From: Candidatus Peregrinibacteria bacterium
GTDB taxonomy: Bacteria; Patescibacteriota; Gracilibacteria; Peribacterales; Peribacteraceae
Length of the DNA stretch: 60,456 nt
NCBI GenBank assembly: GCA_016178535.1
Contig: JACOTD010000078.1
Span: forward strand, 1-60,456
Direction of reading: 5' to 3'
In this document: in pieces, positions 41,649 through 54,718 of the stretch
Layout of the letters: the number at the start of each line of letters is the position of its first letter
How positions within the stretch are numbered: the first letter of the stretch is position 1
Position numbers and translations under genes: made by a program
Notes under the pieces: generated by a model
What the model saw: the letters and a program-made list of their open reading frames with translations, nothing else
What the model was told of the DNA's origin: nothing
Databases searched by the model: none

Positions 41649-44048
41649 TTACCTTTGAGGATTGGAATTGCTATCCACAGACATACGTCGTTCTTCCGTG
41701 GGATACAATTTTTTCAGCACCAATCCCCATGCCTGATGTTGTCGTTCGGATTGGGATGCCACTCGGATTTGTTCAAGGCGTGAACGCAATTCATTCACAA
41801 GTCTGCGCACGTAAGTGTCTCCGCATTCCACCGTATCAAGCCATCGCCAGGCAATTTCACCGGACAGAATTTTTCTCATGTCTGGCATGGTTACTTCCCA
41901 TGGCTGTTTGCCAAGTTTTCCTGCAACGCCTTCGATGTCGGTACGGAAATCTGCAATTGCCTGAGGATCATCCAATAGAGATTCTTCTGAACGAATCACA
42001 CCTGTTCTATGGGTACTTCTCTGTTCTTCGATAAGGGTGCGTATCGCGCGTTCGAATTGCTCTTCGCTTTCCCAGTGGAGACGCCTGCAATTGAACATCG
42101 TACGCATATTCTTGCTATTCACTCTTCCTACGTATTCGTCAGTTCCTCTTGGTTGTCGCGTGAAGAACGCTGCCATGTACGAGTCATCGTTGAGAATGAA
42201 TTGCAGGGAAAGCTGAGGCAGAGTCACCACGATGTGGTGCCCGTGATGAATGGTAGAATAATCGCGTTGCTGCGTATCAGTTGTATCTGCTCCATCCGTG
42301 TCCCACGCGAATTCTGCGCTTTCACGCTGCTGCAGCAGTACTTTGTGAAGACAGGCAAGTCGAGGCATTGATGTTCTCCTTCCCCCAGGTGTTCCTTCTT
42401 GTGCGTGATCGCTACCATCGCCATCCACCGCATCTGTTTGTCGTTCTCGCGAAAGATATATTCCCTCAACATCATTCGAGTGCAGCAGCCGAGACTCCAG
42501 TGTCCGTAAAGAAGGTACACTCATTGCCGACCACTGATCTTTATCAGCTGCGTTGATGCCCGCGATGAGAAATGTCGCGCTAATGTTGTTCGAGTCTTCA
42601 TCAACGGCGCCGGGCAATTGTGGTTTAGTCGTCGAACCTGGATACAGAATATGGACGAAATCTTGAAATTCGACGAATATGCATGAACGAAGCAACTCCT
42701 CTTGCTCCTTCCATTGAGGACAAAGTATTTCGAGCATTCTCTGCATACGACCTGCAAGTCGCGGCAAATTCTCCTTGATCGCAATTGTTTTCTCCAGAAT
42801 TGGAGATGGAAAGGAGAGAGGCGGAATCCAATTTTTATTGCCTGTCATTTGAACATCATCTGGGGATGCAGTGATACCATTTCCGTTATCTGATCTTATA
42901 AGCGACAAAGTACGTTCTTTCGTCTCAGAGAAGCGGACTCCATTGTCACTATCCTTCCAACCATAAGTACCAATGAGATGAGGCAGATTTCTTTTGGCTC
43001 GAATTGACGGCAGATACCCATGGGGAAATCTTGAAAGTATTCCATGTGCAATCTCTACGTTTGCGCATTCTTGTTCAAAATTGTTGAAAGTATCACGTAC
43101 AGCGCCAATTGCATTGCCATAATGCGATGACGATTGCCCAAATTGATGCATTTCTCCATCATTGAGCGGGTCTTTCGCGTGCTTGGGCCGCCGCATTTCC
43201 CAATTTTGATTTTGCGTTTGCAAAAGACGGCGAAACGCTGCTTGTTTCTCTGCGGGGGGAATTGGAAGTTTGCCAAATGCATGGCGCAACATCGATGTCA
43301 AAAATACTACCGAAAAAATTCTTGGATCAATAGTACCAGGTTCAATGATGTCAATGATTTTCTCCATGCATCGAATGCTTATGGCAATAAGCGCCGTGAG
43401 AAATTCTTCTGGAGACAAACTCGGCATTACCGTTCCAATTTCCATTGCGATTGACTCACTGATTTCCTTAGTAAGATCATGCAGTGTTGCCCGTGTTATC
43501 CCTACGCCCATTCGCACACTCTCTCCATTTTCCGTTGTTGTTACCCTTATTCCTTGATAGATCTGATTGATGGTCTCGCATCGTATTGCTATTGCTGGGT
43601 CCAGAACATCCATGATCGGAGCAATTCTCAATCGATCATTCATGAGCTGAGTCTTGGTATCGTCGCGCAATTTTTGAAGACTGATTCTTTCAGTATGATC
43701 ATCCATCATCAAATTTGCTACCATGAGCGGGTAGAGAGCCTTTTCTCTCAGTCTTTCCGAGGATTCTACGGATCTGGTTGGAACAGTTGGATCATCAGTT
43801 GTCTCTGAATCATTTGATATCGCAACTTGTGGGTTCAGCACATTACCAACTTCATGCCGTGCGGTTAAGCGCTCCCGCTCCAATCGTTGACCCAATTCCT
43901 CTTCAATTGCTCGCAGCAAAGTCTCTTCGTCGGGAGCCAGCGTCTTGCCTTTACGAACACGCCGAGGATCATCTCGTTTGCCTTCCAGTTGTTCTTTTTT
44001 ACGTCGCAATAAAGTTGTCTCTGACGAGGCTATTTGGTCTAGTTTCAT
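41649..44048 (-). CDS. Hypothetical protein, 799 aa, AT-richer foreign composition, no recognisable domain
   Basis: Clean 2.4-kb ORF with an ATG at 44048. Codon usage is visibly A/T3-rich, unlike the flanking genes. No TM or signal peptide is present. The N-terminus is charged and coiled-coil-like (KKEQLEGKRDDPRRVRKGK...EEELGQRLERERL). Confidence 0.7.
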   Translation of the reverse strand: MKLDQIASSETTLLRRKKEQLEGKRDDPRRVRKGKTLAPDEETLLRAIEEELGQRLERERLTARHEVGNVLNPQVAISNDSETTDDPTVPTRSVESSERLREKALYPLMVANLMMDDHTERISLQKLRDDTKTQLMNDRLRIAPIMDVLDPAIAIRCETINQIYQGIRVTTTENGESVRMGVGITRATLHDLTKEISESIAMEIGTVMPSLSPEEFLTALIAISIRCMEKIIDIIEPGTIDPRIFSVVFLTSMLRHAFGKLPIPPAEKQAAFRRLLQTQNQNWEMRRPKHAKDPLNDGEMHQFGQSSSHYGNAIGAVRDTFNNFEQECANVEIAHGILSRFPHGYLPSIRAKRNLPHLIGTYGWKDSDNGVRFSETKERTLSLIRSDNGNGITASPDDVQMTGNKNWIPPLSFPSPILEKTIAIKENLPRLAGRMQRMLEILCPQWKEQEELLRSCIFVEFQDFVHILYPGSTTKPQLPGAVDEDSNNISATFLIAGINAADKDQWSAMSVPSLRTLESRLLHSNDVEGIYLSRERQTDAVDGDGSDHAQEGTPGGRRTSMPRLACLHKVLLQQRESAEFAWDTDGADTTDTQQRDYSTIHHGHHIVVTLPQLSLQFILNDDSYMAAFFTRQPRGTDEYVGRVNSKNMRTMFNCRRLHWESEEQFERAIRTLIEEQRSTHRTGVIRSEESLLDDPQAIADFRTDIEGVAGKLGKQPWEVTMPDMRKILSGEIAWRWLDTVECGDTYVRRLVNELRSRLEQIRVASQSERQHQAWGLVLKKLYPTEERRMSVDSNSNPQR

Positions 44049-44083: not shown

Positions 44084-44116
44084 CAAAGGCTTTTTGCCTT
44101 CCTTAAGCACTCTTTA

Positions 44117-44236
44117 ACCCCGGCACCTTCTGCTTCAGAAGCTCCACGACGGCGTCCAAATCTTCATTCACCATGATGTGATCGAAGAGATCCTTTCGCT
44201 CGGAAAAGAAGTCGAGGTCTTTCTCCCATTCTTCTG
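44117..44236 (-). repeat. Relic second copy (~120 nt) of the 3' end of the DUF35-GK gene
   Basis: aaccccggcaccttctgcttcagaagctccacgacggcgtccaaatcttcattcaccatgatgtgatcgaagagatcctttcgctcggaaaagaagtcgaggtctttctcccattcttc versus 44770-44890. About eight differences were counted by eye, including a 1-nt gap. Confidence 0.9.
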
Positions 44237-44325
44237 GACGAGTTTTTTGCGGGTTCCTGATTGACATGCACTAAAAGCTTGCATAGAATTGTCTCATTAG
44301 TGGCTTCGGCCTCCGAGGACTCCGC

Positions 44326-44730
44326 TCACGCGGGGTCCGATTTTATATACGAGGCGATGCATGCACGAACGGAAGTGAATTCTTTGGTGGAGATCATGCC
44401 GATTTTTCGAAGGAGCCGTTTACTGCTGATCGTTCGGAGTTGCGACAAGCAAGCGAATGAAACTCCCCGATCATGAGCAATCCGATGATAGTGCTTGCCG
44501 AATCGTTTCTTCGATGTGAGTGGGATAACCCACAGCATGTATCCGTTGAATTTTTTCACAATGAGAACGGGGCGCTCAAAGTGATCGTTCTTCCCGTCAC
44601 TCTCCACTCCCACATTGATCCCAATTGAGCACCACCACACTTCTCGTTCATGAAAAAATACCGTCCGCTTGTCTTCCTGGGCGTCGAGCTTCTTTTTCAT
44701 GCTGTTCCATTGATCGAAGAGTTTTTGCAT
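44326..44730 (-). CDS. PemK/MazF-like toxin, solitary (no adjacent antitoxin ORF)
   Basis: 134 aa: WNSMKKKLDAQEDKRTVFFHEREVWWCSIGINVGVESDGKNDHFERPVLIVKKFNGYMLWVIPLTSKK. This matches the long-form PemK/MazF pattern (..WW...G.N.G.E.dGk...f.RPvlI..kf). It is AT-richer than the host genes. Confidence 0.7.
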   Translation of the reverse strand: MQKLFDQWNSMKKKLDAQEDKRTVFFHEREVWWCSIGINVGVESDGKNDHFERPVLIVKKFNGYMLWVIPLTSKKRFGKHYHRIAHDRGVSFACLSQLRTISSKRLLRKIGMISTKEFTSVRACIASYIKSDPA

Positions 44731-44757: not shown

Positions 44758-45711
44758 TCACGCCCCCCTCAATCCCGGCACCTTCTGCTTCAGAAGCTCC
44801 ACGACGGCGTCCACGTCTTCATTCACCATGATGTGATCGAAGAGGTCTTTGCGCTCGGAAAAGAAGTCGAGGTCCTTCTCCGCATTCTTCAGGCGGTCGG
44901 CGATGTGCTCTTCGGTGTCGCGGCCTCTTGTTCGGAGTCTGTGCAATAAATGACTCAGCATCGCCCGCTTGCTGTTGCCGGGCGGGAGGAGGCCGCAGGA
45001 GAGGATGGAGCGGCGGCCGTACTGTTCGGCGAGGCCTTGGAGCAAGTGCATCTCGGTGATGACGACGGGAATTTTCCCCGCCTTCCAAATGCGCTCGATG
45101 TCCTGCGCGCGGTAGCCGTACAGACGGTCTTCGGATGAGGAAGGGATCTGCGTGCTCGCGATGATCTCGCCTCGGCTCTGGAGTTCAGCGAAGGTTTTCT
45201 TGGCAATGTAGCGATACTCGCCGTCGTCTCCCGCTTTCTTCCTGCGCGTCGTGTGGATCGGCACGTTCTCGAGGTAGCTGGAACACATCTGAACGAGGAG
45301 GCGGCTGATGGTGGATTTTCCCACGCCCGAGGGGCCAGTCAGTGCAAGAATGTATCCAGGGAAGTTCGGCACTTCCTTCGAAACGGGCAGACGTTGTTTC
45401 GTTGTCTCGTTGTGTTGTTGCTTGTCTTGCGATGCAGGTTCGAATGCGACGTCATACATTCGGAGCTTCTCTCCATTGATTCGAGAAAGTCTCATGCGGG
45501 GGAGAACGGCGTCACCAATCGAACAGGGGGCCGTGAGAGGCGCGAGAACGTTGGAGCCGTCTTCGAGCGCGATGAGGGCGATGCGCCGCGGGAATTTCCC
45601 AAAGGCTGCAGGCGGATGCAGGAGGGTCGTCACGGAGACGACGGTGCCGGGCTGCATCTTGCTCCCGCGCTGCTTGAGCGCACGGTGAAGGGAAGGCGAC
45701 GTGTCAGTCAT
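44758..45711 (-). CDS. Fusion protein: DUF35-type OB-fold domain (thiolase/HMG-CoA-synthase partner) plus a guanylate-kinase-like P-loop domain
   Basis: The N-terminal part GTVVSVTTLLHPPAAFGKFPRRIALIALEDGSNVLAPLTAPCSIGDAVLPRMRL fits the DUF35 OB fold, and no Zn-ribbon Cys pairs are present. The C-terminal part LTGPSGVGKSTISRLL...IHTTRRKKAGDDGEYRYI...LYGY...NEDVD fits a guanylate-kinase-like fold. The ATG at 45711 overlaps the thiolase stop by 8 nt. Confidence 0.75.
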   Translation of the reverse strand: MTDTSPSLHRALKQRGSKMQPGTVVSVTTLLHPPAAFGKFPRRIALIALEDGSNVLAPLTAPCSIGDAVLPRMRLSRINGEKLRMYDVAFEPASQDKQQHNETTKQRLPVSKEVPNFPGYILALTGPSGVGKSTISRLLVQMCSSYLENVPIHTTRRKKAGDDGEYRYIAKKTFAELQSRGEIIASTQIPSSSEDRLYGYRAQDIERIWKAGKIPVVITEMHLLQGLAEQYGRRSILSCGLLPPGNSKRAMLSHLLHRLRTRGRDTEEHIADRLKNAEKDLDFFSERKDLFDHIMVNEDVDAVVELLKQKVPGLRGA

Positions 45712-46831
45712 GCATGCGTTCGAGGATATGTATACCACAGCTCGCGCACGCGCCGCCGAAATTATGCGCCATTCCCCACCTCTCTTCGCGCTCTGTCAAC
45801 TGCTTCGCGAGGTCGTTCAGCTGCTTGATGCCGGTGGCGGCGACGGGGTGTCCGCAGCCTTTGAGTCCACCGCTCGCGTTGATGGCGAAGCGCGTCTTCT
45901 TCCCTTCGTACAAATCCTTGTAGAGCGAAATTCCCTCGCCCGGGTTCGCAAAGCCCAGATCTTCCAGGTTGATGAGAGCGGCGATGGAGAAGCAGTCGTG
46001 GGTCTCGAGGCACGAGAGATCGTCGAGCGTGATGTCGGCTTCTTTCAGCGCTCTCCCACAGGCATCCCTCGACGCCGGGAAGCTCGTGATGGACGGACGC
46101 TTCGTGATGCTGACGGCATCGGAGGCGATGCTCGAGGCGGCGAGACGGAATTCGCTCTCGTGATTGGTCGAGAGGATGCAGGCGGCGCCGCCGTCGCTGA
46201 TGGGGGAGCAATCGAGGAGGCGGAGCGGATCGGCCACGAGCGGGCTTTTGGAAACCGCTTCCGGCGTGATGACGTTTCGAAACTGCGCGAAGAGATTCCC
46301 TTTCGCATTCCTGTGATGTACGGCGGAGACGAGGCTCAGCTCTTCCCGCGTGAGGCCGTGCTCGTGCATGTAGCGCGCGGCGATGAGTCCGAAGATACCG
46401 GGGAACGTGAGGCCCGATGGACGATCTTCTTCGCTGTCCGCTGCAACCATCAGCCCCGCGGCGATGGCATCGACGGAGACGTCGGTCATTTTCTCCGCTC
46501 CGACGACGAGCACCGTCTTCGCTCTGCCGCTCTCGAGGAACGCGCACGCCGTGTGAAGGGCGTACGCCCCCGACCCGCAGGCGGATTCCACCCGGATGGC
46601 GGGCGGGCGGTGAGGGAGCAAGGCCGAAACGAGCGAGCCGAGGTGCGCTTGGCTGCTCGTCACTTCTCCGAGCATATTGCTCACGATGATGGCATCAATC
46701 TCCAGAGCCGTGATGCGCGAGGAATCGATGGCCGCCGTCACGGCTTCCTCAATGAGATCCATCAAACTTTTGTCCCATCGCTCGCCGAAGCGGGTTTGGC
46801 CTTGGCCGATGAGGGAGATGGAAGTGTTCAA
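45704..46831 (-). CDS. Archaeal-type acetyl-CoA C-acetyltransferase (thiolase)
   Basis: 375 aa: VESACGSGAYALHTA (nucleophile Cys), ...ETHDCFSIAAL, GGLKGCGHPVAATG, and NFGGACAS. This is the short thiolase form that pairs with HMG-CoA synthase and DUF35. Confidence 0.88.
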   Translation of the reverse strand: MNTSISLIGQGQTRFGERWDKSLMDLIEEAVTAAIDSSRITALEIDAIIVSNMLGEVTSSQAHLGSLVSALLPHRPPAIRVESACGSGAYALHTACAFLESGRAKTVLVVGAEKMTDVSVDAIAAGLMVAADSEEDRPSGLTFPGIFGLIAARYMHEHGLTREELSLVSAVHHRNAKGNLFAQFRNVITPEAVSKSPLVADPLRLLDCSPISDGGAACILSTNHESEFRLAASSIASDAVSITKRPSITSFPASRDACGRALKEADITLDDLSCLETHDCFSIAALINLEDLGFANPGEGISLYKDLYEGKKTRFAINASGGLKGCGHPVAATGIKQLNDLAKQLTEREERWGMAHNFGGACASCGIHILERMHD

Positions 46832-46872
46832 GGAGGGCAGAAAGGACAGGAAAGTGAGAAAAGGCAGGAAGG

Positions 46873-47898
46873 TCAGTGCGTTCTGGAATGCTCGATGTAC
46901 TGACTGTAATCCACATGCTGTTCTTCGCGCTCGTCTGGCGGAAGTCGCACGCCGTCTCGCAGCATGGTCATGAAGAATGCGTCCGCTCCGGAGCCCGATC
47001 CGTAGGAAACGAGCAGGATCGTCTCATCCTTCTTCGCTTCTTCGAGAACGAACGTCAATCCCAGCGGCGAGCAGGCGCTGTACGTGTTGCCGATGCGCGG
47101 GACGATGAGCCCATGCCGCAGTTGTTCCTTGGTGATGCCGAATTCCTTGGCGATCGCTTGCGGGAACTTGGCATTGGGCATGTGGAGGATGACGTGATCG
47201 ATCTCTCGAAGATCCAGCTTCGCGACTTCCACGATGCCGCGAATCGCTTCTCGAACATGGTGGAAATACCCCGGTTCCCCCGTAAACCGTCCGGCATGGT
47301 GCGGGAACTTCTCGCCGGATGGACGCCAGAAATCCGGCGTGTCGGTGGTGAAGGAAAGCGTTTCTTCGATCCGCGCGATGGCGCTCGCACTCCTCTCGGA
47401 TCCAAGGAGGAGTGCCGCCGCGCCCGCCGACGCCGTGTACTCGAGCGCATCGCCGGGTTTCGCTTGGGCCGTGTCCGATCCGATGGCGAGGCCGTAGTGT
47501 ATCTGACCGCTCCGCACGAACGCATCGACGATCTGCATCGCGGCCGTTCCCGCCTTGCAGGCGAATTCCAAATCCGCGGCGAAGGAGAAGGGATGCAGCT
47601 CGAGGGCGGTTGCGAGCATCGCGCTCGTGGGTTTGACGGCGTAAGGATGGCTCTCGGATCCCACGAACACGGCGGAAACTTCCGAGGACGCGATCCCCGC
47701 CATCGCGATCGCCTGTTTGCTGGCTTCAAAGGCCATGGTGAACGTGTCCTCGTCGGGCGCGGGAACCGTCTTCTCCTCCACTCCGATGCTCGCGGCAATC
47801 CCCCGGCCATCCTGGCCCCAATGCTCGGCGATGGTTGCCGTCGTGATCCGGAACACCGGGAGGTACCTGCCGAAGCTGACGATGGCTGAGTGGGACAT
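46873..47898 (-). CDS. Hydroxymethylglutaryl-CoA synthase (archaeal type)
   Basis: MSHSAIVSFGRYLPVFRI...DEDTFTMAFEA...VGSESHPYAVKPTS...DLEFACKAGT (catalytic Cys)...ILHMPNAKF...GNTYSACSPLGL. The start is taken at the ATG at 47898. Confidence 0.88.
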   Translation of the reverse strand: MSHSAIVSFGRYLPVFRITTATIAEHWGQDGRGIAASIGVEEKTVPAPDEDTFTMAFEASKQAIAMAGIASSEVSAVFVGSESHPYAVKPTSAMLATALELHPFSFAADLEFACKAGTAAMQIVDAFVRSGQIHYGLAIGSDTAQAKPGDALEYTASAGAAALLLGSERSASAIARIEETLSFTTDTPDFWRPSGEKFPHHAGRFTGEPGYFHHVREAIRGIVEVAKLDLREIDHVILHMPNAKFPQAIAKEFGITKEQLRHGLIVPRIGNTYSACSPLGLTFVLEEAKKDETILLVSYGSGSGADAFFMTMLRDGVRLPPDEREEQHVDYSQYIEHSRTH

Positions 47899-48060
47899 CC
47901 GGGGAAGGATAGCAGGAAAATGAAAGATGTCTTCAGGAATATCGCAGCTCGGTGACATCCCACTTGCCCGATGCCGATGACCATGGATACTCCTCAGCCG
48001 ATGCAGCCAGTCCTTCGACAACGGGATTTTGATGGATAGAACGCAGGACCGCCGCCGATC

Positions 48061-49269
48061 TCAACATGATCTGCCAAGCTTCTCATGAGCCTTCGCCAAA
48101 CTATGGCTTGCCAGTGCAGCCAGGAGTGACAATTCCCCCGCGAGCACAGCCGCTCCACAACTCTCCGCAACGTGGCGACAGGGATGTATGGTTCGACAGG
48201 GCTCACCATGACATCCCAAAAGCATGGAGAGACATTGGTTCTGCGCGGGCAGTCCCGTTCCTCCTCCGCGAACTCCGACGAGGATTGCCGGGAGCCGTAC
48301 AGTGATCTTCAATCCGTTCTCAACTTGGGAGACGCTCGTGTCCGCGAGCGATCCTTCCACCACGTGCGCGGCATCTTGTCCGGTTGCCAGGTAAAGCGCA
48401 GCAATCACATTCGCCGCATGAAGATTGCTCCCGATTGCTCCCGCGATCTCGGATCCCAGTTCCAGCTTCGCTCTAGCGACTTCCAGAAGATCGACGCTCG
48501 AGGATTTCAGAATGGATCCAAGAATTTCTTCGGGGATCGTCGCTTCCGCAAAGACCTCGTAGCCCCGACCGCGCTCGTAGGTGCGCAAGCTCGGCTTTTT
48601 ATCGCTCTCCACGTTCGCAGCAACGGTCACGAAGCTGCAGCCGCCAATCGTCTCCGCGATCCACTCGCCCACAGACTGCGCGGCGATCGTGATCATGTTC
48701 ATGCCCATGGCTTCATCGGTATCGGCGGAGACTGTGAGGAAGACGTAGTCATCGCGCTCGTCGATTTCGAAGTTCATGACCTTCAGATGTTTGCTTGTGC
48801 GCTCTGCAATCGCAATCCATTCGGCCGACCTTGTTTTTACACTGTCCACTTTCCCTGCCTGTCCCTGCCTCGCCGGCAGGCGGGCGGCAGGTCCACTTTC
48901 CACTCGCAGCGCAATGGAGCGGCTGATCCCGCGATGTTCGGATGATGTCTTCACTCCACCGGACGCGCTCACCGCCTTGCATCCGCGGTTCACGCTGGCC
49001 ACGAGCGCTCCTTCCGTGGTTGCGAGCGGCAGATGGATATTGTGTTTTTCGTTTGAGCTGAATGTCACGGCCAAAGGTCCCGCATACCCAACGGGAATCG
49101 GCACCGCGCCGAACATCTGTTCGCAGTTCTTCTCGTCTGCAGCTCCGAGATCCTCATCGAGGAAACGCGTCCTGGAAAGATCAATGTCGAGTTCCCGCTC
49201 GATGCGACTGCGCCGCTCATTGCAGCGATCAGTGGGGGAAAGGCCGGGGGGCAGGGAACGAAGATCCAT
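48061..49269 (-). CDS. HMG-CoA reductase (class I-like)
   Basis: CEQMFGAVPIPVGYAGPL...LPLATTEGALVASVNRGCKA...DAMGMNMIT...GSNLHAANVIAALYLATGQDAAHVVEGS...VGVRGGGTGL. It contains an in-frame repeat-derived insert at 48843-48906. Confidence 0.9.
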   Translation of the reverse strand: MDLRSLPPGLSPTDRCNERRSRIERELDIDLSRTRFLDEDLGAADEKNCEQMFGAVPIPVGYAGPLAVTFSSNEKHNIHLPLATTEGALVASVNRGCKAVSASGGVKTSSEHRGISRSIALRVESGPAARLPARQGQAGKVDSVKTRSAEWIAIAERTSKHLKVMNFEIDERDDYVFLTVSADTDEAMGMNMITIAAQSVGEWIAETIGGCSFVTVAANVESDKKPSLRTYERGRGYEVFAEATIPEEILGSILKSSSVDLLEVARAKLELGSEIAGAIGSNLHAANVIAALYLATGQDAAHVVEGSLADTSVSQVENGLKITVRLPAILVGVRGGGTGLPAQNQCLSMLLGCHGEPCRTIHPCRHVAESCGAAVLAGELSLLAALASHSLAKAHEKLGRSC

Positions 49270-49356
49270 GGGAAGAATGACGAGTTACGAATTACGATTG
49301 GAAGATTGGAGCATTGAACATTCATTCGTACATCGCAATTCGTCAATCGTACATGC

Positions 49357-50364
49357 TCAGTTGATCACATGCGCCCCTTTCCCCGTATGCGCGACAAACA
49401 CCGTGCATCCCTGTTGTTCGTGAGCGAAGTGCAGCACGTCTTCCTTGGCTTCCGCCGGGCAGAAGAGGTGGACGGTGGGACCGGCGTCCATCGTGTAGAG
49501 GACGGGCAGGCGCTTCATCCGCCGGTACACCGTGATCTCCTCGAGGATCAGTCGCGTGTCGCGCGTGAGGTACTGGAGCGAGGGCGTACTCGTGCGCATC
49601 ACCTCGTGCATGTCGAGGCAATCCTCCTCCGCCACGCGTTGGAGCTTCTCGAAGTCCCGTGTGCGGATGGCATCGATGCATTCGCGTTGTCTTCTGGGGA
49701 TCTCCTGCACGCGCTTGGGGAAGAGAGGACTCGTGCGCGCCAGTGAATGACCTTCCGTCGATCCGTACTCCTTCTCCTTCCGGCTCGGGACGATGATGAT
49801 GTCGTAGAGGAGCCAATGTTGATCATCCGCGACGGGAACGGCCTTCGCGCTGTCGATGGCGTCGCCCGTGCCCGCCTCGAGCGCAACGTACCCGTCGAAT
49901 GCGCCGCGCGCTGCGGATCCCGATCCGAGTCTTCCGATCACGCTGATCTCCTCCCGCGAGAGTTTCCGCTCCGTTTCGATGAGTCCCGCGTACGCCTGCG
50001 CGAGGCAACTGAAGACGGCTGCGGACGAGGCGATGCCGATGCCCGGAGGGATCGCGGAATGGATGGTGATCGAGACGGATGCGGGGATCGCTTCGGGAGA
50101 ACCCAACTCGGCGAGATACTGTTTCGTGAGTTCCAGATGACGGTTGAATCGCAGCACGTGCTTCATGGTCATCCTCCGCTCTCTGCCATCAGATTCGAAC
50201 GAGTGAATGTCGAGGACATCCGAGTCATCCACGATGATCTCGACGGAAGGCGTATTGAGCGCCATGGAGAGCGAATCCGCGGCGGGCAGACGCAGGCCGT
50301 CGTTGCGGTTGCCCCAGTACTTGATGAGGGCGATGTTCGGGGTGGAGCGGGCAGTGATTGGCAT
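49357..50364 (-). CDS. GHMP-family (di)phosphomevalonate decarboxylase
   Basis: MPITARSTPNIALIKYWGNRNDGLRLPAADSLSMAL...IPPGIGIASSAAVFSCLA...GSGSAARG...TMDAGPTVHLF. The substrate (mevalonate-5-PP versus mevalonate-5-P) cannot be told from sequence by eye. Confidence 0.85.
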   Translation of the reverse strand: MPITARSTPNIALIKYWGNRNDGLRLPAADSLSMALNTPSVEIIVDDSDVLDIHSFESDGRERRMTMKHVLRFNRHLELTKQYLAELGSPEAIPASVSITIHSAIPPGIGIASSAAVFSCLAQAYAGLIETERKLSREEISVIGRLGSGSAARGAFDGYVALEAGTGDAIDSAKAVPVADDQHWLLYDIIIVPSRKEKEYGSTEGHSLARTSPLFPKRVQEIPRRQRECIDAIRTRDFEKLQRVAEEDCLDMHEVMRTSTPSLQYLTRDTRLILEEITVYRRMKRLPVLYTMDAGPTVHLFCPAEAKEDVLHFAHEQQGCTVFVAHTGKGAHVIN

Positions 50365-50372
50365 GCGTGAAC

Positions 50373-50408
50373 GATACAGAAAACACCCGCCTTTGTAGAG
50401 GCGGGCGT
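50373..50408 (-). terminator. Rho-independent-terminator-like hairpin between mvk and the decarboxylase gene
   Basis: Minus strand: ACGCCCGCC-TCTACAAA-GGCGGGTGT followed by TTTCTGT. It lies 16 nt after the mvk stop and just upstream of the next ATG (50364). Confidence 0.45.
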
Positions 50409-50423
50409 CGGCATGCCAGATTT

Positions 50424-51284
50424 TCAATGCACAATACTGAATCCAGAGCGTTCGGAAATGAATCGCAGTGCTTCCGAATCTTTGTGCAGTCCCAAGACGA
50501 CTCCGCTGCAGCCAGTCCGCCCTCCCGCACCAATGACTTTCGCTGCACCTCTCATTTCTTCCATTCCCTCGATGAGTCTTTGCACTCGCTGCGGCACTAC
50601 GCCGAGCGCGACTTGAGCGCGGTGATGGTCGGGAATGACAGAAGCGAGCGGTTCGCCTCCTTCGATTCTCTCCGTGCATCGGCCGATGATTTCAAAGAAC
50701 GGCATCAGCTCTTTTTTCCTCGCTTGCACCCACGCGACGAGTTCGGGAGTCGTTTCTCTTGGCATCCCCGTGTCGATGAGGATCATCTCCTGCTCCAGCG
50801 AAGAGGGGAGTGCGATGTCTTTTGGCTCATGGCCGCGCTGGAATCGCAGCGGACGATTATTCCAGATAACGGCGAAGTCGAGGCCGCTGTTCCCCGGGTT
50901 CACGGCATCCTCGATCTGCTGCGCATGATTTTCACAGCCTTCGCCGAACAAGCATCGTGCGATCGCAATGACGGCGGCAGTCGAAGAGCCCATGCCTTTT
51001 CCGATCGGAATGTCATTTTCGATCGTGATTGTCCCGAACCATTTCCGATCTGCGATTTTCTCAGATTCTCGAACAATGCGGTCGAGATAATTTTGCCACG
51101 CAGGATGCGTCATAGACGGATCGCAGCGGAGTTCCAGTGTTCCCGAGTCCCTCTCTTCGAACGTCACGGTCAATCGCTGCCGCGAAGGCATGGCGATTCC
51201 CGGGAAGCCGGAGACGACCGCATGGTCGCCGCTCAGGATAATCTTGCCGGGGACGGAGACAGTGCGAGATGGCATGGAGATCAT
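50424..51284 (-). CDS. mvk: Mevalonate kinase (GHMP family)
   Basis: VSVPGKIILSGDHAVVSG (motif I) and IPIGKGMGSSTAAVIAIARCL (GHMP motif II). Its position heads the mevalonate operon. Confidence 0.85.
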   Translation of the reverse strand: MISMPSRTVSVPGKIILSGDHAVVSGFPGIAMPSRQRLTVTFEERDSGTLELRCDPSMTHPAWQNYLDRIVRESEKIADRKWFGTITIENDIPIGKGMGSSTAAVIAIARCLFGEGCENHAQQIEDAVNPGNSGLDFAVIWNNRPLRFQRGHEPKDIALPSSLEQEMILIDTGMPRETTPELVAWVQARKKELMPFFEIIGRCTERIEGGEPLASVIPDHHRAQVALGVVPQRVQRLIEGMEEMRGAAKVIGAGGRTGCSGVVLGLHKDSEALRFISERSGFSIVH

Positions 51285-51412
51285 TGAGAAATTTGGATGG
51301 TTGGATGGTCAAATGGTTCGCAGGCGATTCTCGGAGCCTCAGGATATTCTATGAACCATCTCACCATCCGTATCCTGTGAAAATTCTCGCAAGGGAGCCT
51401 ACCATACGGGTG

Positions 51413-52291
51413 ATGAATGCCGACATTCCATCCTTCCGAGAGGCGAGCGGTCGACTGCTTCCCCTGATCGAGAAATCCCTCACCGATGCCGTTGCATTCC
51501 CGGGAATTCCCGAGACGACCTTGATCCGTGCGATGCGTTACGCACTTTTGCTTCCTGGAAAACGTCTGCGTCCGCTCCTGGTCTTGCTCGCGTGCGAAGC
51601 GTGCGGCGGTTTTTCTGCGAAGGCGCTTCCTGCGGCGTGCGCCGTGGAGATGGTCCATGCCTTCTCGCTCATCCACGACGACCTCCCGTGCATGGACGAT
51701 GACGATCTTCGCAGGGGGAAGCCCACGAATCACACCGTCTTCGGCGAGGCGCAGGCACTGCTCGCGGGGGATGCGCTGCTCGCACTCGCGTTCAGAACTC
51801 TCGCGGAACATCTGCCGCAGGGGATTGCGTCTTCGTGTGTTCATGAGCTCGCGCAAGCGTCCCTCGCGATGGCAGGCGGTCAATCGCTCGACATGGAAGG
51901 TTTTGGTGACAATCCTCCTCGAGGCGAGATCGAGGGAATGGAACGGAAGAAGACGGGCGCGCTCATCACGGCGGCGCTCGAGATGGGCGGCATCGTCGCC
52001 GAAGCTTCGCAGGAACATCTCGCGGCATTGCGTGAGTATGGATGGCGTATCGGTCTCGCGTTCCAGATCATGGATGATCTCCTCGATGTTGAAGGGTCGC
52101 AGGAAGACACTGGAAAGCGTGTTGGAAAGGATGCGGAAAAGGGCAAGCGGACGCTTCCGGCAATCATCGGAGTAGAGCGAAGCCGCAAGAGAGCGGAGCA
52201 GTTGATCGAGGAAGCATGTTCAGCATTAGAAATATTCCAAAGCGGATCGACTATGCTTCTATCTCTTGCGAATTTCATTGAGGTTCCTTAA
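51413..52291 (+). CDS. Polyprenyl diphosphate synthase (FPP/GGPP synthase family)
   Basis: LLPGKRLRPLLVLLA...VEMVHAFSLIHDDLPCMDDDDLRRGKPT (first DDxxD) and FQIMDDLLDV (second DDxxD)...GKDAEKGKRT. Confidence 0.92.
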   Translation: MNADIPSFREASGRLLPLIEKSLTDAVAFPGIPETTLIRAMRYALLLPGKRLRPLLVLLACEACGGFSAKALPAACAVEMVHAFSLIHDDLPCMDDDDLRRGKPTNHTVFGEAQALLAGDALLALAFRTLAEHLPQGIASSCVHELAQASLAMAGGQSLDMEGFGDNPPRGEIEGMERKKTGALITAALEMGGIVAEASQEHLAALREYGWRIGLAFQIMDDLLDVEGSQEDTGKRVGKDAEKGKRTLPAIIGVERSRKRAEQLIEEACSALEIFQSGSTMLLSLANFIEVP

Positions 52292-52300
52292 GCTTTTTCT

Positions 52301-52531
52301 ATGGAAGAGAACCTCATCATAACTGTATCTGCCGAGGGAGAATGTCCAGTAGATCGCGCTGAATTTTCTGCAGATCTTCAAGCGACAATTCAACCTATTC
52401 TTCAGCGTTACAATTTGTCACTCAGGGGTTCTGTCCTCGTTGAGGATGATTTGTTGGGAGCGATTGTTGCCTTCAATGACGAGGAGCGCGACGAAGTGTC
52501 ACTTGGTGGTGACATGATTGGATCTGATTGA
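52301..52531 (+). CDS. Small acidic hypothetical protein (76 aa)
   Basis: The ATG at 52301 lies 9 nt after the polyprenyl synthase stop: MEENLIITVSAEGECPVDRAEFSADLQATIQPILQRYNLSLRGSVLVEDDLLGAIVAFNDEERDEV... Codons are A/T3-rich, atypical for the host. No family was recognised. Confidence 0.35.
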   Translation: MEENLIITVSAEGECPVDRAEFSADLQATIQPILQRYNLSLRGSVLVEDDLLGAIVAFNDEERDEVSLGGDMIGSD

Positions 52532-52541
52532 TTGCGAATCA

Positions 52542-53801
52542 TCACGAACCGAATCTCCTCTCTCGCTTCATGAATCCGTCGATCGCATTCTGGAGATCCT
52601 CCGGCGTCAGATCCGGAAAGTACTTCTCCAGGAACAGCCACTCCGCGTACGCGGTCTGCCAGAGGAAGAAGTTCGAGGTGCGCTGCTCGCCGGAGGTGCG
52701 GATCACGAGATCGATGTCCGGGAGCTCGGGATGATCCAGATGTGCGCGGAGATCTTCCTCCGTGACGTCTGCGCCTTTCGGAAGCGTTCTGATCGCGCGG
52801 AGCAGCTCATCCTTTCCGCCGTAATCGAGCGCCAGGTGCAGCGTCATCGCCGGATCCTCTGCGGTCGCTCGATCCAGTTCCTCGAGGGAGGTGAGCAGGG
52901 CGGGAGAGATGCGATCGCTGCGGCCGGAACGGATGAGGTGGATGCGATTCTCGATGAGTTTCTCGCGCTTCGTCTCGACGGATTCCTCCAGCAATTCCAT
53001 CAACTTCTTCACTTCCTTGGGATCGCGCTTCCAGTTCTCCGTCGAGAAGCACCAGAAGGTCAGCACCCCGATGCGGCCGTCGTTGCGACACCACTCGACC
53101 AATGCGTCGAATGTCTCCGCCGATTGCTCATGGCCCTTCCATGGCAGAAAGCTTCGCTCCCGCGCCCAGCGGCGGTTGCCGTCGGGGATGATTGCCAAGT
53201 GCAGACGTGGTGATGGCTTTTGCATGCGATGGCGGAACGTTTCTCGTTGTCTCGTTGTCTCGTTGTCTCGTTCAATTCTTGATTGTTGAAAGATTTGGTG
53301 AAGTCCAAAGTGGAACCACGGTGCGAATTGTTCGGGATTTCTTGTCATCTCTCGTTTGAGATCCATGAGGGCGATCCATCGAACGGCCGACGCTTCTTTC
53401 GGATCGGGCTTCACAGGAATCGTCTCCGGTGTTCGACCGAGGAGAATCGTGACGTGCTCATGTTCGACGCCTCTGTGTTGCGGATCCTCCGCGCGATAGA
53501 TGAACGTGCCTTGAATTTCGAGCGGCACATCGATCCCAAGTTCTTCCTGGAGACGTCTCCTCCCCGCAGTCACTGCATCTTCATGTTTGAACAGATGGCT
53601 GCAGCACGTGTTCGCCCAGATTCCGGGCCACAGCATTTTCTCGCTGCTTCGCTGCTGGATGAGGATGTTCTTGCCATCCTCGCTGAAGAGGTACACGGAA
53701 AACGCGCGGTGGAGCGAACCCTTCCCCGTGTGCGCGGCGATCACGTCTTCGGTGCCGATCGCGGCGCCGGAGGCATCGGTGAGGGTGACGGTGCGGGGCA
53801 T
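52542..53801 (-). CDS. Fusion: type 1 isopentenyl-diphosphate isomerase (Nudix) plus undecaprenyl-diphosphate (cis-prenyl) synthase
   Basis: The N-terminal half is LHRAFSVYLFSEDGKNILIQQRSSEKMLWPGIWANTCCSH...LQEELGI (IDI-1). The C-terminal half is HLAIIPDGNRRWARER...VLTFWCFSTENWKR...DLVIRTSGEQRTSNFFLWQTAYAEW...RRFG (UppS). The start is taken at the ATG at 53801. Confidence 0.88.
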   Translation of the reverse strand: MPRTVTLTDASGAAIGTEDVIAAHTGKGSLHRAFSVYLFSEDGKNILIQQRSSEKMLWPGIWANTCCSHLFKHEDAVTAGRRRLQEELGIDVPLEIQGTFIYRAEDPQHRGVEHEHVTILLGRTPETIPVKPDPKEASAVRWIALMDLKREMTRNPEQFAPWFHFGLHQIFQQSRIERDNETTRQRETFRHRMQKPSPRLHLAIIPDGNRRWARERSFLPWKGHEQSAETFDALVEWCRNDGRIGVLTFWCFSTENWKRDPKEVKKLMELLEESVETKREKLIENRIHLIRSGRSDRISPALLTSLEELDRATAEDPAMTLHLALDYGGKDELLRAIRTLPKGADVTEEDLRAHLDHPELPDIDLVIRTSGEQRTSNFFLWQTAYAEWLFLEKYFPDLTPEDLQNAIDGFMKRERRFGS

Positions 53802-53901: not shown

Positions 53902-54420
53902 TTAGCGCCTTCCTTTTGCCTTCCGTGCGCGGCCGCCTTTTTTGACTGCGCGCTTCTTCATGCTCTTCTTCGTCGATCGCGCCGGCTTCTTCATCTTCTT
54001 CGCCGGACGCATGCTTTTTTTCTTCATCGTTTTCTTCGCCATGGCACGCTTTGCCTTGACGGTTTTTTTCTTGGACTTCTTCACTTTCATCGGACGGGAA
54101 GGCTTGGCTTTCATCATCTTCTCGACTGGCTTCTTCGCATTCGCGCGCACCATCGATGTCATCTTCTTCACGGTCTTCTTGGTGATGTTCGTCTCCCGAG
54201 GCGTCTCGATGTGAGGTGCTTCCTGCGGCGGCTCAGGCTCAGGCATGGGAGGTTCTTCCGAAACCTCCGGTAAGGGCATCAAGACCGGCCCCTCCTCGGG
54301 CATGTCCATGGGCTCGGGCTCCGTCACTGTTTCCGTGAACGTCGGTTCGGGGACGGGCTCAGAGCGTTCCCACATGTTCCAGTCATCGGTCCCGGCGGCA
54401 AACTGTTGGCGCATGGTCAT
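53902..54420 (-). CDS. Bipartite low-complexity protein: acidic/Pro-rich N-terminal half and lysine-rich histone-H1-like C-terminal half
   Basis: MTMRQQFAAGTDDWNMWERSEPVPEPTFTETVTEPEPMDMPEEGP...PEPEPPQEAP is followed by KKTVKKMTSMVRANAKKPVEKMMKAKPSRPMKVKKSKKKTVKAKRAMAKK...KGGRARKAKGRR. Confidence 0.55.
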   Translation of the reverse strand: MTMRQQFAAGTDDWNMWERSEPVPEPTFTETVTEPEPMDMPEEGPVLMPLPEVSEEPPMPEPEPPQEAPHIETPRETNITKKTVKKMTSMVRANAKKPVEKMMKAKPSRPMKVKKSKKKTVKAKRAMAKKTMKKKSMRPAKKMKKPARSTKKSMKKRAVKKGGRARKAKGRR

Positions 54421-54718
54421 ACGGAGGGGAGGAAGAGAAGTGCGGCGCACAGGGTAGGACGATCGGGGCATCCCACGCAAGTGGAGACAAGGGGAATCGG
54501 AAAAAAGACCCAAGCACCAAGCCCCAAATCCCGCTTCGACTCTGCTCAGGGCAGGCAAACAATTCATAAAGGTAACAGGTTTGAATTTTCAAGAGTTTCT
54601 TGATAATCGATGAATTGTTTGGTCACCCGTTCCGGGCCTGAGTGCCCGTCATGGCCTCGAACGGCTGGAGCCTCGGTGATTGATGCTTTTCTGCGATCCG
54701 CTCTCCCGGAGGCATCAT

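Follow-up and report, generated by a model that had tools for sequence, protein, structure and literature searches.

This study concerns a block of isoprenoid genes in a 60,456-nucleotide window of DNA, the window being the whole stretch analyzed, namely contig JACOTD010000078.1 (C71 in our numbering) of assembly GCA_016178535.1, from a member of the Peribacteraceae (Peregrinibacteria; candidate phyla radiation, CPR). The block encodes a mevalonate pathway in which the second phosphorylation has no recognizable enzyme, and the best candidate for the missing kinase was found within the block itself, in a protein that joins a DUF35-type OB fold to a guanylate-kinase-like (GK-like) domain. An earlier reading of the DNA, made from its letters and hereafter called the sequence-only reading, had listed this fusion as a mere member of the block. 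Judging from sequence signatures and gene contexts, we now lean, without strong conviction, toward a route in which a phosphomevalonate decarboxylase (MPD) would yield isopentenyl phosphate (IP) and the GK-like domain would serve as the IP kinase (IPK).

In the proposed route, mevalonate would arise from acetyl-CoA through the action of a thiolase and an HMG-CoA synthase, both of archaeal type, followed by a class I HMG-CoA reductase; the thiolase and the synthase are probably held together in a physical complex by the DUF35-type OB domain. A single mevalonate kinase (MVK)-like enzyme would then produce mevalonate-5-phosphate, from which the MPD-type decarboxylase would form IP. The conversion of IP to isopentenyl diphosphate (IPP) is assigned, as a prediction, to the guanylate-kinase-fold domain of the fusion, which would take the place of the amino-acid-kinase-fold IPK of Chloroflexi, haloarchaea and other CPR bacteria; the reaction would follow the chemistry of nucleoside monophosphate (NMP) kinases, i.e., transfer of the gamma-phosphate of ATP onto a phosphomonoester to give a diphosphate. 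Finally, isopentenyl diphosphate isomerase (IDI), farnesyl diphosphate (FPP) synthase and the undecaprenyl diphosphate synthase UppS would carry IPP to undecaprenyl diphosphate.

The gap itself has a history. Peribacteria were described as possessing a "near-complete mevalonate pathway" (Anantharaman et al. 2016, PMC4736985), and this 2016 account identified the steps up to mevalonate-5-phosphate and again from mevalonate-5-diphosphate onward, i.e., with the same gap as found here (PMC4736985). In CPR bacteria, an archaeal-type thiolase and HMG-CoA synthase, a class I reductase, MVK, a decarboxylase and IDI-1 have been reported, in synteny with a cis-prenyltransferase (Hoshino & Gaucher 2018, PMC6107057); IPK is present in some CPR groups, often beside IDI even where other mevalonate (MVA) genes are lacking (PMC6107057). 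The cluster type itself is already known for Peribacteria and the CPR and is standard in Peribacteraceae and CPR bacteria, and the block is not an oddity of one bacterium (PMC4736985, PMC6107057). The new points are an MPD-type route that, throughout the family, has no homologous IPK, and a candidate guanylate-kinase-fold IP kinase; neither was found in the literature, and literature searches likewise retrieved no guanylate-kinase-like enzyme in mevalonate pathways.

The missing kinase and the substrate of the decarboxylase

The host genome (1.25 Mb in 92 contigs) is estimated to be 97.5% complete, and its gene identities were taken from an open reading frame (ORF) listing together with Pfam and NCBIfam profile scans, using the cut-offs of the models. 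Relatives were sampled at the level of the order (151 genomes) and of the phylum (401 genomes), and the protein search covered 1.84 billion representative proteins.

A scan of the genome for the GHMP N-terminal domain retrieved two proteins only, both encoded in the block. One is the decarboxylase; the other is MVK1, which carries the motifs PGKIILSGDHAVV and LIDTG and is the sole GHMP kinase of the genome. The animal-type phosphomevalonate kinase (PMK; PF04275) was absent from the genome. The GHMP-type PMK (TIGR01220) exceeded its cut-off in none of the 151 order genomes, which is weak evidence, since the Lactococcus lactis control also remained under the cut-off in this six-frame search. Some weak matches to PMK models were seen in the relatives, and these were actually MVKs or the decarboxylase itself. 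Likewise, no IPK was found in the genome, where the best matches to the IPK model NF040647 were ProB (glutamate-5-kinase, 59 bits) and PyrH (UMP kinase); the possibility of a hidden IPK among these matches was rejected, as ProB adjoins proC and PyrH adjoins frr. None of the 151 order genomes passed the IPK cut-off either, which the archaeal control genomes did.

With regard to other routes to IPP, the genes dxr, ispG and ispH of the methylerythritol phosphate (MEP) pathway were not found in the genome, and a weak match to dxs was rejected as a transketolase. The GHMP scan revealed no ispE, and individual searches were not made for ispD, ispE and ispF. AcnX and UbiD, which mark the archaeal (Aeropyrum-type) route, had no match in this genome or in 20 relatives. 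The block is the genome's only route to IPP. The sequence-only reading had found the second phosphorylation to be without a recognizable enzyme, and this held genome-wide, with no PMK, IPK or MEP genes detected; it had also pointed out that a MEP pathway plus a PMK or IPK elsewhere in the genome would make the block an ordinary one, and neither was found.

The sequence-only reading had left the gap as either a PMK or an IPK, and here the decarboxylase is informative. Its motifs are YWGN, LRLP (with Arg27), GSGS, GSTEGH and the catalytic DAGP. Its closest solved relative, at 179 bits, is 6n0x, the phosphomevalonate decarboxylase of Anaerolinea thermophila with mevalonate-5-phosphate bound (PMC9254496), whereas true diphosphomevalonate decarboxylases (MDDs) scored 115 bits or less. 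The variant structure 6n0z differs from 6n0x by two changes, from YWG-N to K and from GSTQG-H to M; at these two positions, the window enzyme has Asn and His (YWGN, GSTEGH), and the MDDs of Arabidopsis thaliana and Sulfolobus have Lys and Met. From the sequences of the two structures, we infer that the differences correspond to the specificity-switch mutants reportedly described by Thomas et al. 2019 (ACS Chem Biol). The residue at the position of Ile27 of S. epidermidis is Arg in the window decarboxylase, and Arg at this position represents the MPD state (Dellas et al. 2013, Table 4, PMC3857490). These MPD-state residues and the DAGP motif are common to 22 of the 22 orthologues sampled from clusters of the window's type (type A, described below), the window included. 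On the strength of these signatures, the substrate of the decarboxylase is most likely mevalonate-5-phosphate, and an MPD-state decarboxylase implies that the missing enzyme is most likely an isopentenyl-phosphate kinase and not a PMK. Of the two options left by the sequence-only reading, the residues (Asn, Arg27, His) thus point to the IPK and away from the PMK.

The GK-like domain: structure, distribution and gene contexts

The fusion protein consists of a DUF35-type OB fold in residues 1-95 and a P-loop domain of the guanylate kinase fold in residues ~118-317. The profile of the OB domain matched 6esq_E, a DUF35 protein, with E = 3.6e-7 over residues 48-110, the alignment starting at residue 48 of 6esq_E, and PF01796 is recorded in homologues of the fusion. 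No Cys pairs of a zinc ribbon were found in fusion residues 1-30. The AlphaFold2 model of the fusion had a pLDDT of 86.5, and its GK part matched closed GMP kinases with a TM-score of 0.85; residues 96-107 of the linker were disordered in this model (pLDDT <50). The linker of the window protein also contains a 14-residue insertion, DKQQHNETTKQRLP, at residues ~97-110, which is present in 0 of 28 aligned homologues.

Alignment of 29 homologues (mean identity 61%) revealed which parts of a guanylate kinase have been preserved. Invariant were the P-loop, GPSGVGK(S/T)T, the TTR motif, Tyr at the positions of mouse Y53 and Y81, and the lid arginines; the position of mouse R44 is Lys in most family members. 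The guanine contacts, in contrast, were replaced. Mouse S37, E72 and T83, which we take to be the GMP-binding residues of the structures 1LVG and 1EX7, correspond to an invariant Ile, to Ala or Ser, and to an invariant Tyr, respectively, and the replaced contacts are followed by a four-residue insertion, 'IPSxxE', in the GK-like family. On the Gmk model TIGR03263 (cut-off 160), the GK-like domain scored 80.5 bits. It is to be noted that the genome has a second guanylate kinase gene (contig C65:1220-1783), which scored 132 bits on the same model, also below the cut-off, and has kept all GMP contacts. Overall, the sequence of the GK-like domain suggests a kinase that is active yet does not bind GMP. 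The invariant P-loop, lid arginines and phosphate-binding residues argue for catalysis, and the retained machinery would phosphorylate a phosphomonoester, which is the chemistry needed by an IP kinase or a PMK.

The surroundings of the fusion gene show signs of a rearrangement. At window positions 44106-44237 (minus strand), a fragment shares 84% identity with the final 44 codons of the fusion gene, and a solitary PemK/MazF-like toxin ORF (44326-44730, minus strand) is located between this fragment and the gene. Since the duplicated 3' fragment lies beyond the toxin, it appears that the toxin cassette entered at the 3' terminus of the fusion gene, duplicating that end.

In the order-level sample, strong matches to the fusion were found in 110 genomes and to the decarboxylase in 108, and 106 genomes had both; the decarboxylase occurred without the kinase in two, which are fragmented genomes, the kinase without the decarboxylase in four, and 39 had neither. 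The cluster is present in ~70% of this sample, with protein identities of 45-70% that track the relatedness of the genomes. In the phylum-level sample, strong GK-like matches were confined to Peribacteraceae, and the proteins most similar to the fusion are assigned by name to Candidatus Peregrinibacteria or Peribacteraceae. Only 18 of the 1.84 billion representative proteins were retrieved at E <= 1e-30, after which the scores fall sharply to those of ordinary Gmks.

The clusters were of several types. Type A, that of the window and of ~88 sampled genomes, has the order OB/GK fusion (OBGK), thiolase, synthase, reductase, decarboxylase and MVK1. Type B (16 genomes) adds a divergent pair, made of a canonical MVK that exceeds its cut-off and a decarboxylase that groups with the Anaerolinea MPD (263 bits); this decarboxylase has Arg or Lys at the Asn of YWGN, and NTGQ for DAGP, so that the catalytic Asp is changed to Asn. 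Three genomes, classed as type C, combine the gene order of type A with a decarboxylase like that of type B. The pair of second MVK and decarboxylase was seen at loci L008, L009, L010, L011 and L064 (relatives G007, G084, G067 and G132, and a Kaiserbacteria-labelled record). The possibility that the extra GHMP kinase of type B is a PMK, which would leave the fusion redundant, was considered and rejected, as this kinase scored 190-216 bits as an MVK, above the cut-off, and 77-89 bits on PMK models, and as the decarboxylase paired with it is the nearest relative of the Anaerolinea MPD. L064 has a single row of genes, namely MVK2, decarboxylase, reductase, synthase, thiolase, OBGK and IDI, and IDI is directly downstream of the fusion in both L056 and L064. 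In genome G001, scored as 100% complete, the cluster (L051, G001:C1:25000-40000) comprises, besides the fusion, the genes of the thiolase, synthase, reductase and MVK1 together with UppS and IDI. A decarboxylase was not found in G001, whose whole genome encodes one GHMP protein. Across types A, B and C, L064 and G001, there was no PMK or IPK, and the GK-like domain was kept in all.

The GK-like domain also occurs without its OB partner. In G549 (L052), the GK-like gene stands alone, shares 65% identity with that of the window and is devoid of an OB domain; UppS flanks it on one side, and on the other the next gene downstream is IDI, after which comes a polyprenyl synthase. This assembly, which is without a completeness estimate, yielded no HMG-CoA synthase, GHMP protein or IspH. 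In G145 and G100, representing two genera, the stand-alone copy is part of an operon of UppS, a histidine phosphatase (His_Phos_1), the GK-like kinase and a UDP-GlcNAc 2-epimerase (L013, 3211-6557, in G145; L014, 4561-7906, in G100), and no HMG-CoA synthase, decarboxylase or IspH was found in either genome. In G008, which is also without the synthase, the match covers the kinase-domain part only (residues 86-311). The most divergent stand-alone members, P0134-P0139, had no counterpart in the collection searched for related loci.

These contexts, which discriminate best between a PMK and an IP kinase, bear on the function in two ways. First, the OB domain is missing where HMG-CoA synthase was not found (G145, G100, G549), which fits separate jobs of the two halves of the fusion and lends indirect support to the putative bridging of thiolase and synthase by the OB half. 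Second, there is no MVK or decarboxylase in the stand-alone genomes, so that a PMK would be useless in them, whereas a kinase making IPP or dimethylallyl diphosphate (DMAPP) from a salvaged monophosphate would not. The pattern suggests that some pathway-less symbionts may salvage IP or a related prenyl phosphate. We regard the chances as about even for the broader proposal, in which a P-loop IPK derived from guanylate kinase is new and independently evolved, non-homologous to the amino-acid-kinase IPK; its fusion to the OB domain would tether the first and last enzymes on one scaffold, and the kinase alone would be an IP salvage enzyme feeding IDI, FPP synthase and UppS in pathway-less relatives.

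Alternative explanations and implications

Several observations weigh against the assignment of the GK-like domain as an IP kinase acting after an MPD. With regard to the decarboxylase, in a tree of 41 Peribacteraceae decarboxylases and three solved references, the window clade was placed on a branch of 2.1 changes per site and joined neither MPD nor MDD; because the long branch leaves the clade unplaced, the evidence for the MPD assignment consists of the signature residues and the pairwise scores. Moreover, the decarboxylases of the other cluster types group with the Anaerolinea MPD, yet the Asn of the signature is Arg or Lys in them and their catalytic Asp is changed to Asn, and these aberrant relatives indicate that the residue rule is not clean within the family. 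With regard to the kinase, the OB scaffold half could by itself account for the co-occurrence of fusion and cluster. The neighbors in G145 and G100, i.e., the histidine phosphatase and the UDP-GlcNAc 2-epimerase, are cell-envelope genes and not isoprenoid-precursor genes. Of the ~43 genomes of the sample that lack the MVA genes, only three have kept the kinase (G001, the fourth genome in which the fusion occurs without a decarboxylase, still has MVA genes), so that it may be a relic there. Lastly, an unrelated kinase elsewhere in the genome may perform the step.

Two of these points, the sufficiency of the OB half and the cell-envelope neighbors, also speak for the alternative that fares best, which we consider rather doubtful, namely that the GK-like domain is unrelated to the missing step. 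The domain would then be a regulatory module that binds nucleotides, or a module of the thiolase/HMG-CoA synthase complex that binds CoA or a nucleotide, or else it would phosphorylate another nucleotide or a prenyl or polyprenyl phosphate of greater length, and the step would be performed by an unrecognized enzyme elsewhere or its product supplied by a host. GK domains have indeed become non-catalytic binding modules, e.g., in the MAGUK proteins and in the single-mutation conversion of PDB 4f4j, and Peribacteria are thought to be symbionts in which many pathways are missing (PMC4736985). Against this alternative, the P-loop, the lid arginines and the substrate-phosphate residues are invariant, which speaks for catalysis, and the OB-less copies are still found among IDI, UppS and FPP synthase. 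It also counts against this alternative that there is no other kinase in or beside the block, and that a costly and complete upstream pathway, kept in ~70% of the family, would be useless without its last step.

We consider it improbable that the organism uses a classical route with a non-orthologous PMK, in which the decarboxylase would act on mevalonate-5-diphosphate and the GK-like domain would phosphorylate mevalonate-5-phosphate. The chemistry would be the same, from phosphomonoester to diphosphate, and animal PMK sets a precedent of a P-loop enzyme with the NMP-kinase fold, although the GK-like domain shows no similarity to the animal family PF04275. The decarboxylase narrowly missed the cut-off of the MDD model TIGR01240 (Table 1) and is not placed among the MPDs in the tree; however, it is in the MPD state at all three discriminating positions. 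Furthermore, the intact stand-alone kinase is found beside IDI, UppS and FPP synthase in the absence of MVK and decarboxylase, where a PMK would have no substrate or product sink.

A recent horizontal import of the block from archaea is very unlikely, since the best matches of the thiolase, the HMG-CoA synthase and the OB domain to archaeal models, including the Methanothermococcus complex, are outweighed by the occurrence of the same cluster in ~70% of the order sample with identities that track the relatives, by a GC content of 0.55-0.62 that is like the window and unlike the neighboring island of 0.465, by the CPR enzymes forming their own clades beside the archaeal ones in published trees (PMC6107057), and by a lower pathway (GHMP decarboxylase, IDI type 1, GK-like kinase) that is not typically archaeal, AcnX and UbiD being absent. 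Old, lineage-wide inheritance has indeed been favored over recent archaeal import (Hoshino & Gaucher 2018, PMC6107057). Thus, where the sequence-only reading had proposed an archaeal-like origin, the archaeal type of the early enzymes was confirmed, and this does not imply a recent arrival, the cluster type being known and lineage-wide in the CPR (PMC6107057).

The mevalonate gap of Peribacteria, in the literature since 2016, has become a cheaply testable prediction, in which both the step (IP to IPP) and the protein are named. Should the GK-like domain prove to be the IP kinase of an MPD route, several consequences would follow. The second phosphorylation would have a further non-homologous solution, beside the GHMP PMK, the animal P-loop PMK and the amino-acid-kinase-fold IPK, and a housekeeping nucleotide kinase would have been re-tooled for a lipid precursor via a handful of changes in its pocket. 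Metabolic reconstructions of the CPR in which these organisms figure as incapable of IPP synthesis would be corrected. In addition, engineered isoprenol-utilization pathways could benefit from a small, soluble IP kinase with a different fold.

Layout of the block and comparison with known systems

The block is contiguous, and its minus-strand genes are transcribed in the order mvk, hairpin, decarboxylase, HMG-CoA reductase, HMG-CoA synthase, thiolase and OB/GK fusion (Table 1). The FPP-synthase-like gene diverges from mvk, and the IDI-UppS ORF converges on the FPP-synthase-like gene. This arrangement, hairpin included, had been given by the sequence-only reading; the genes were borne out by the Pfam and NCBIfam scans, and the hairpin by its folding energy (Table 1).

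Table 1. Features of the isoprenoid block, in window coordinates, with the scores that identify them
Feature	Position	Strand	Evidence
MVK1, divergent mevalonate-kinase-like GHMP kinase, 286 aa	50424-51284	-	TIGR00549 100 bits (cut-off 163); PMK model 19 bits
GC-rich hairpin, 11-bp stem then UUUU	50382-50409	-	-31.3 kcal/mol, z = -4.2
GHMP decarboxylase, 335 aa	49357-50364	-	best PDB match 6n0x; TIGR01240 166 bits (cut-off 171)
HMG-CoA reductase, class I (NADPH type), 402 aa	48061-49269	-	PF00368 315 bits; TIGR00533 292 bits vs class II TIGR00532 40 bits
Archaeal-type HMG-CoA synthase, 382-aa ORF	46873-48021	-	NF003274 422 bits, TIGR00748 378 bits, both above cut-off
Archaeal-type acetoacetyl-CoA thiolase, 375 aa	45704-46831	-	NF004720 363 bits; NF053570 (AcCoTHIOL_METTL, Methanothermococcus thiolase model) 323 bits
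OB/guanylate-kinase-like fusion, 317 aa	44758-45711	-	8-nt overlap with thiolase stop
FPP-synthase-like short-chain trans-prenyl diphosphate synthase, 340-aa ORF	51269-52291	+	PF00348 208 bits; NF045485 (FPPsyn) 301 bits (cut-off 275)
IDI type 1-UppS in-frame fusion, 450 aa	52542-53894 (TTG start)	-	NF002995 154 bits, TIGR00055 182 bits, both above cut-off

The archaeal type of the early enzymes, which set the block apart from the classical mva operon in the sequence-only reading, was upheld. The HMG-CoA synthase scored only 140 bits on the bacterial model TIGR01835 (cut-off 360), as against its score on the archaeal-type TIGR00748, and the thiolase matched the Methanothermococcus model. Homology of the synthase ORF begins near residue 45. 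The ORF of the decarboxylase extends over 49357-50679, and its homology starts only at M106, which defines the gene as listed in Table 1. In the IDI-UppS ORF, the Nudix/IDI part occupies residues ~34-200 and the cis-prenyltransferase UppS residues ~228-450. This ORF, with its TTG start, reaches beyond position 53801, where the sequence-only reading had ended the block. IDI and UppS form one ORF as assembled here; in all relatives examined, IDI and UppS are adjacent but distinct genes, read in different frames.

The hairpin sits in the 59-nt spacer between mvk and the decarboxylase gene, is the top terminator-like site of the region, and resembles, by its sequence, an intrinsic terminator or attenuator. 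Such a hairpin inside the operon may result in different expression levels for the genes upstream and downstream of it.

The block has a GC content of 0.55-0.62, like the rest of the window. At window positions 41649-44048, the GC drops to 0.465, over an ORF of 799 amino acids without a family match, and this low-GC segment looks like an accessory island beside the operon. On the other flank, directly upstream of IDI-UppS, there is a 221-aa ORF (53902-54567, minus strand) whose middle is acidic and rich in Pro and Glu and whose tail is extremely rich in Lys; it has no family match and is histone-like or nucleic-acid-binding in appearance, and the gene beyond it encodes an Nramp transporter. 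An additional kinase in or beside the block was considered and rejected, as the 221-aa ORF is a Lys-rich low-complexity sequence and the next gene is the transporter.

When compared with known systems, the block is of the same lineage as the CPR/Peribacteria mevalonate cluster and shares its genes and its synteny with a cis-prenyltransferase (PMC4736985, PMC6107057). In those papers, however, the decarboxylase was taken to be of the diphosphomevalonate type, and the OB/GK-like fusion was neither named nor given a role. The PMK and IPK homologues of other CPR groups are missing in Peribacteraceae, and the stand-alone kinase next to IDI parallels the IPK-IDI synteny of other CPR bacteria (PMC6107057). 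The classical bacterial mva operon (mvaS, mvaA, mvaK1, mvaD, mvaK2) is distinguished by a bacterial HMG-CoA synthase, a class II reductase and a GHMP PMK, which were not found here. The alternative pathway of haloarchaea and Chloroflexi (PMC3857490; 6n0x) shares with the block an MVK, an MPD-state decarboxylase, the lack of a PMK and the predicted isopentenyl phosphate; its amino-acid-kinase-fold IPK, in contrast, was found neither in the genome nor in the 151 relatives, and the candidate here is an unrelated P-loop domain of the guanylate kinase fold, fused to a scaffold.

At the level of the fusion protein, three families invite comparison. The GK-like domain shares with guanylate kinase (Gmk/Guk1; PF00625, TIGR03263; mouse 1LVG, yeast 1GKY) the whole fold, the P-loop, the lid arginines and the phosphate-holding residues, whereas its guanine-reading residues are replaced, its score is half the family cut-off, it is fused to an OB domain and located in isoprenoid clusters, and the genome has a separate Gmk. 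Animal PMK (PF04275) offers a precedent of the NMP-kinase fold for the second phosphorylation; there is no detectable sequence relationship, however, and the likely substrate here is IP and not phosphomevalonate. The OB half is homologous to the OB-fold half of the DUF35 subunit of the thiolase/HMG-CoA synthase complex of Methanothermococcus thermolithotrophicus (6esq/6et9), and the fusion gene follows the genes of the thiolase and the synthase; in comparison with that subunit, the fusion is without the N-terminal zinc ribbon (~47 residues, four Cys) and has gained a C-terminal kinase of 200 residues.

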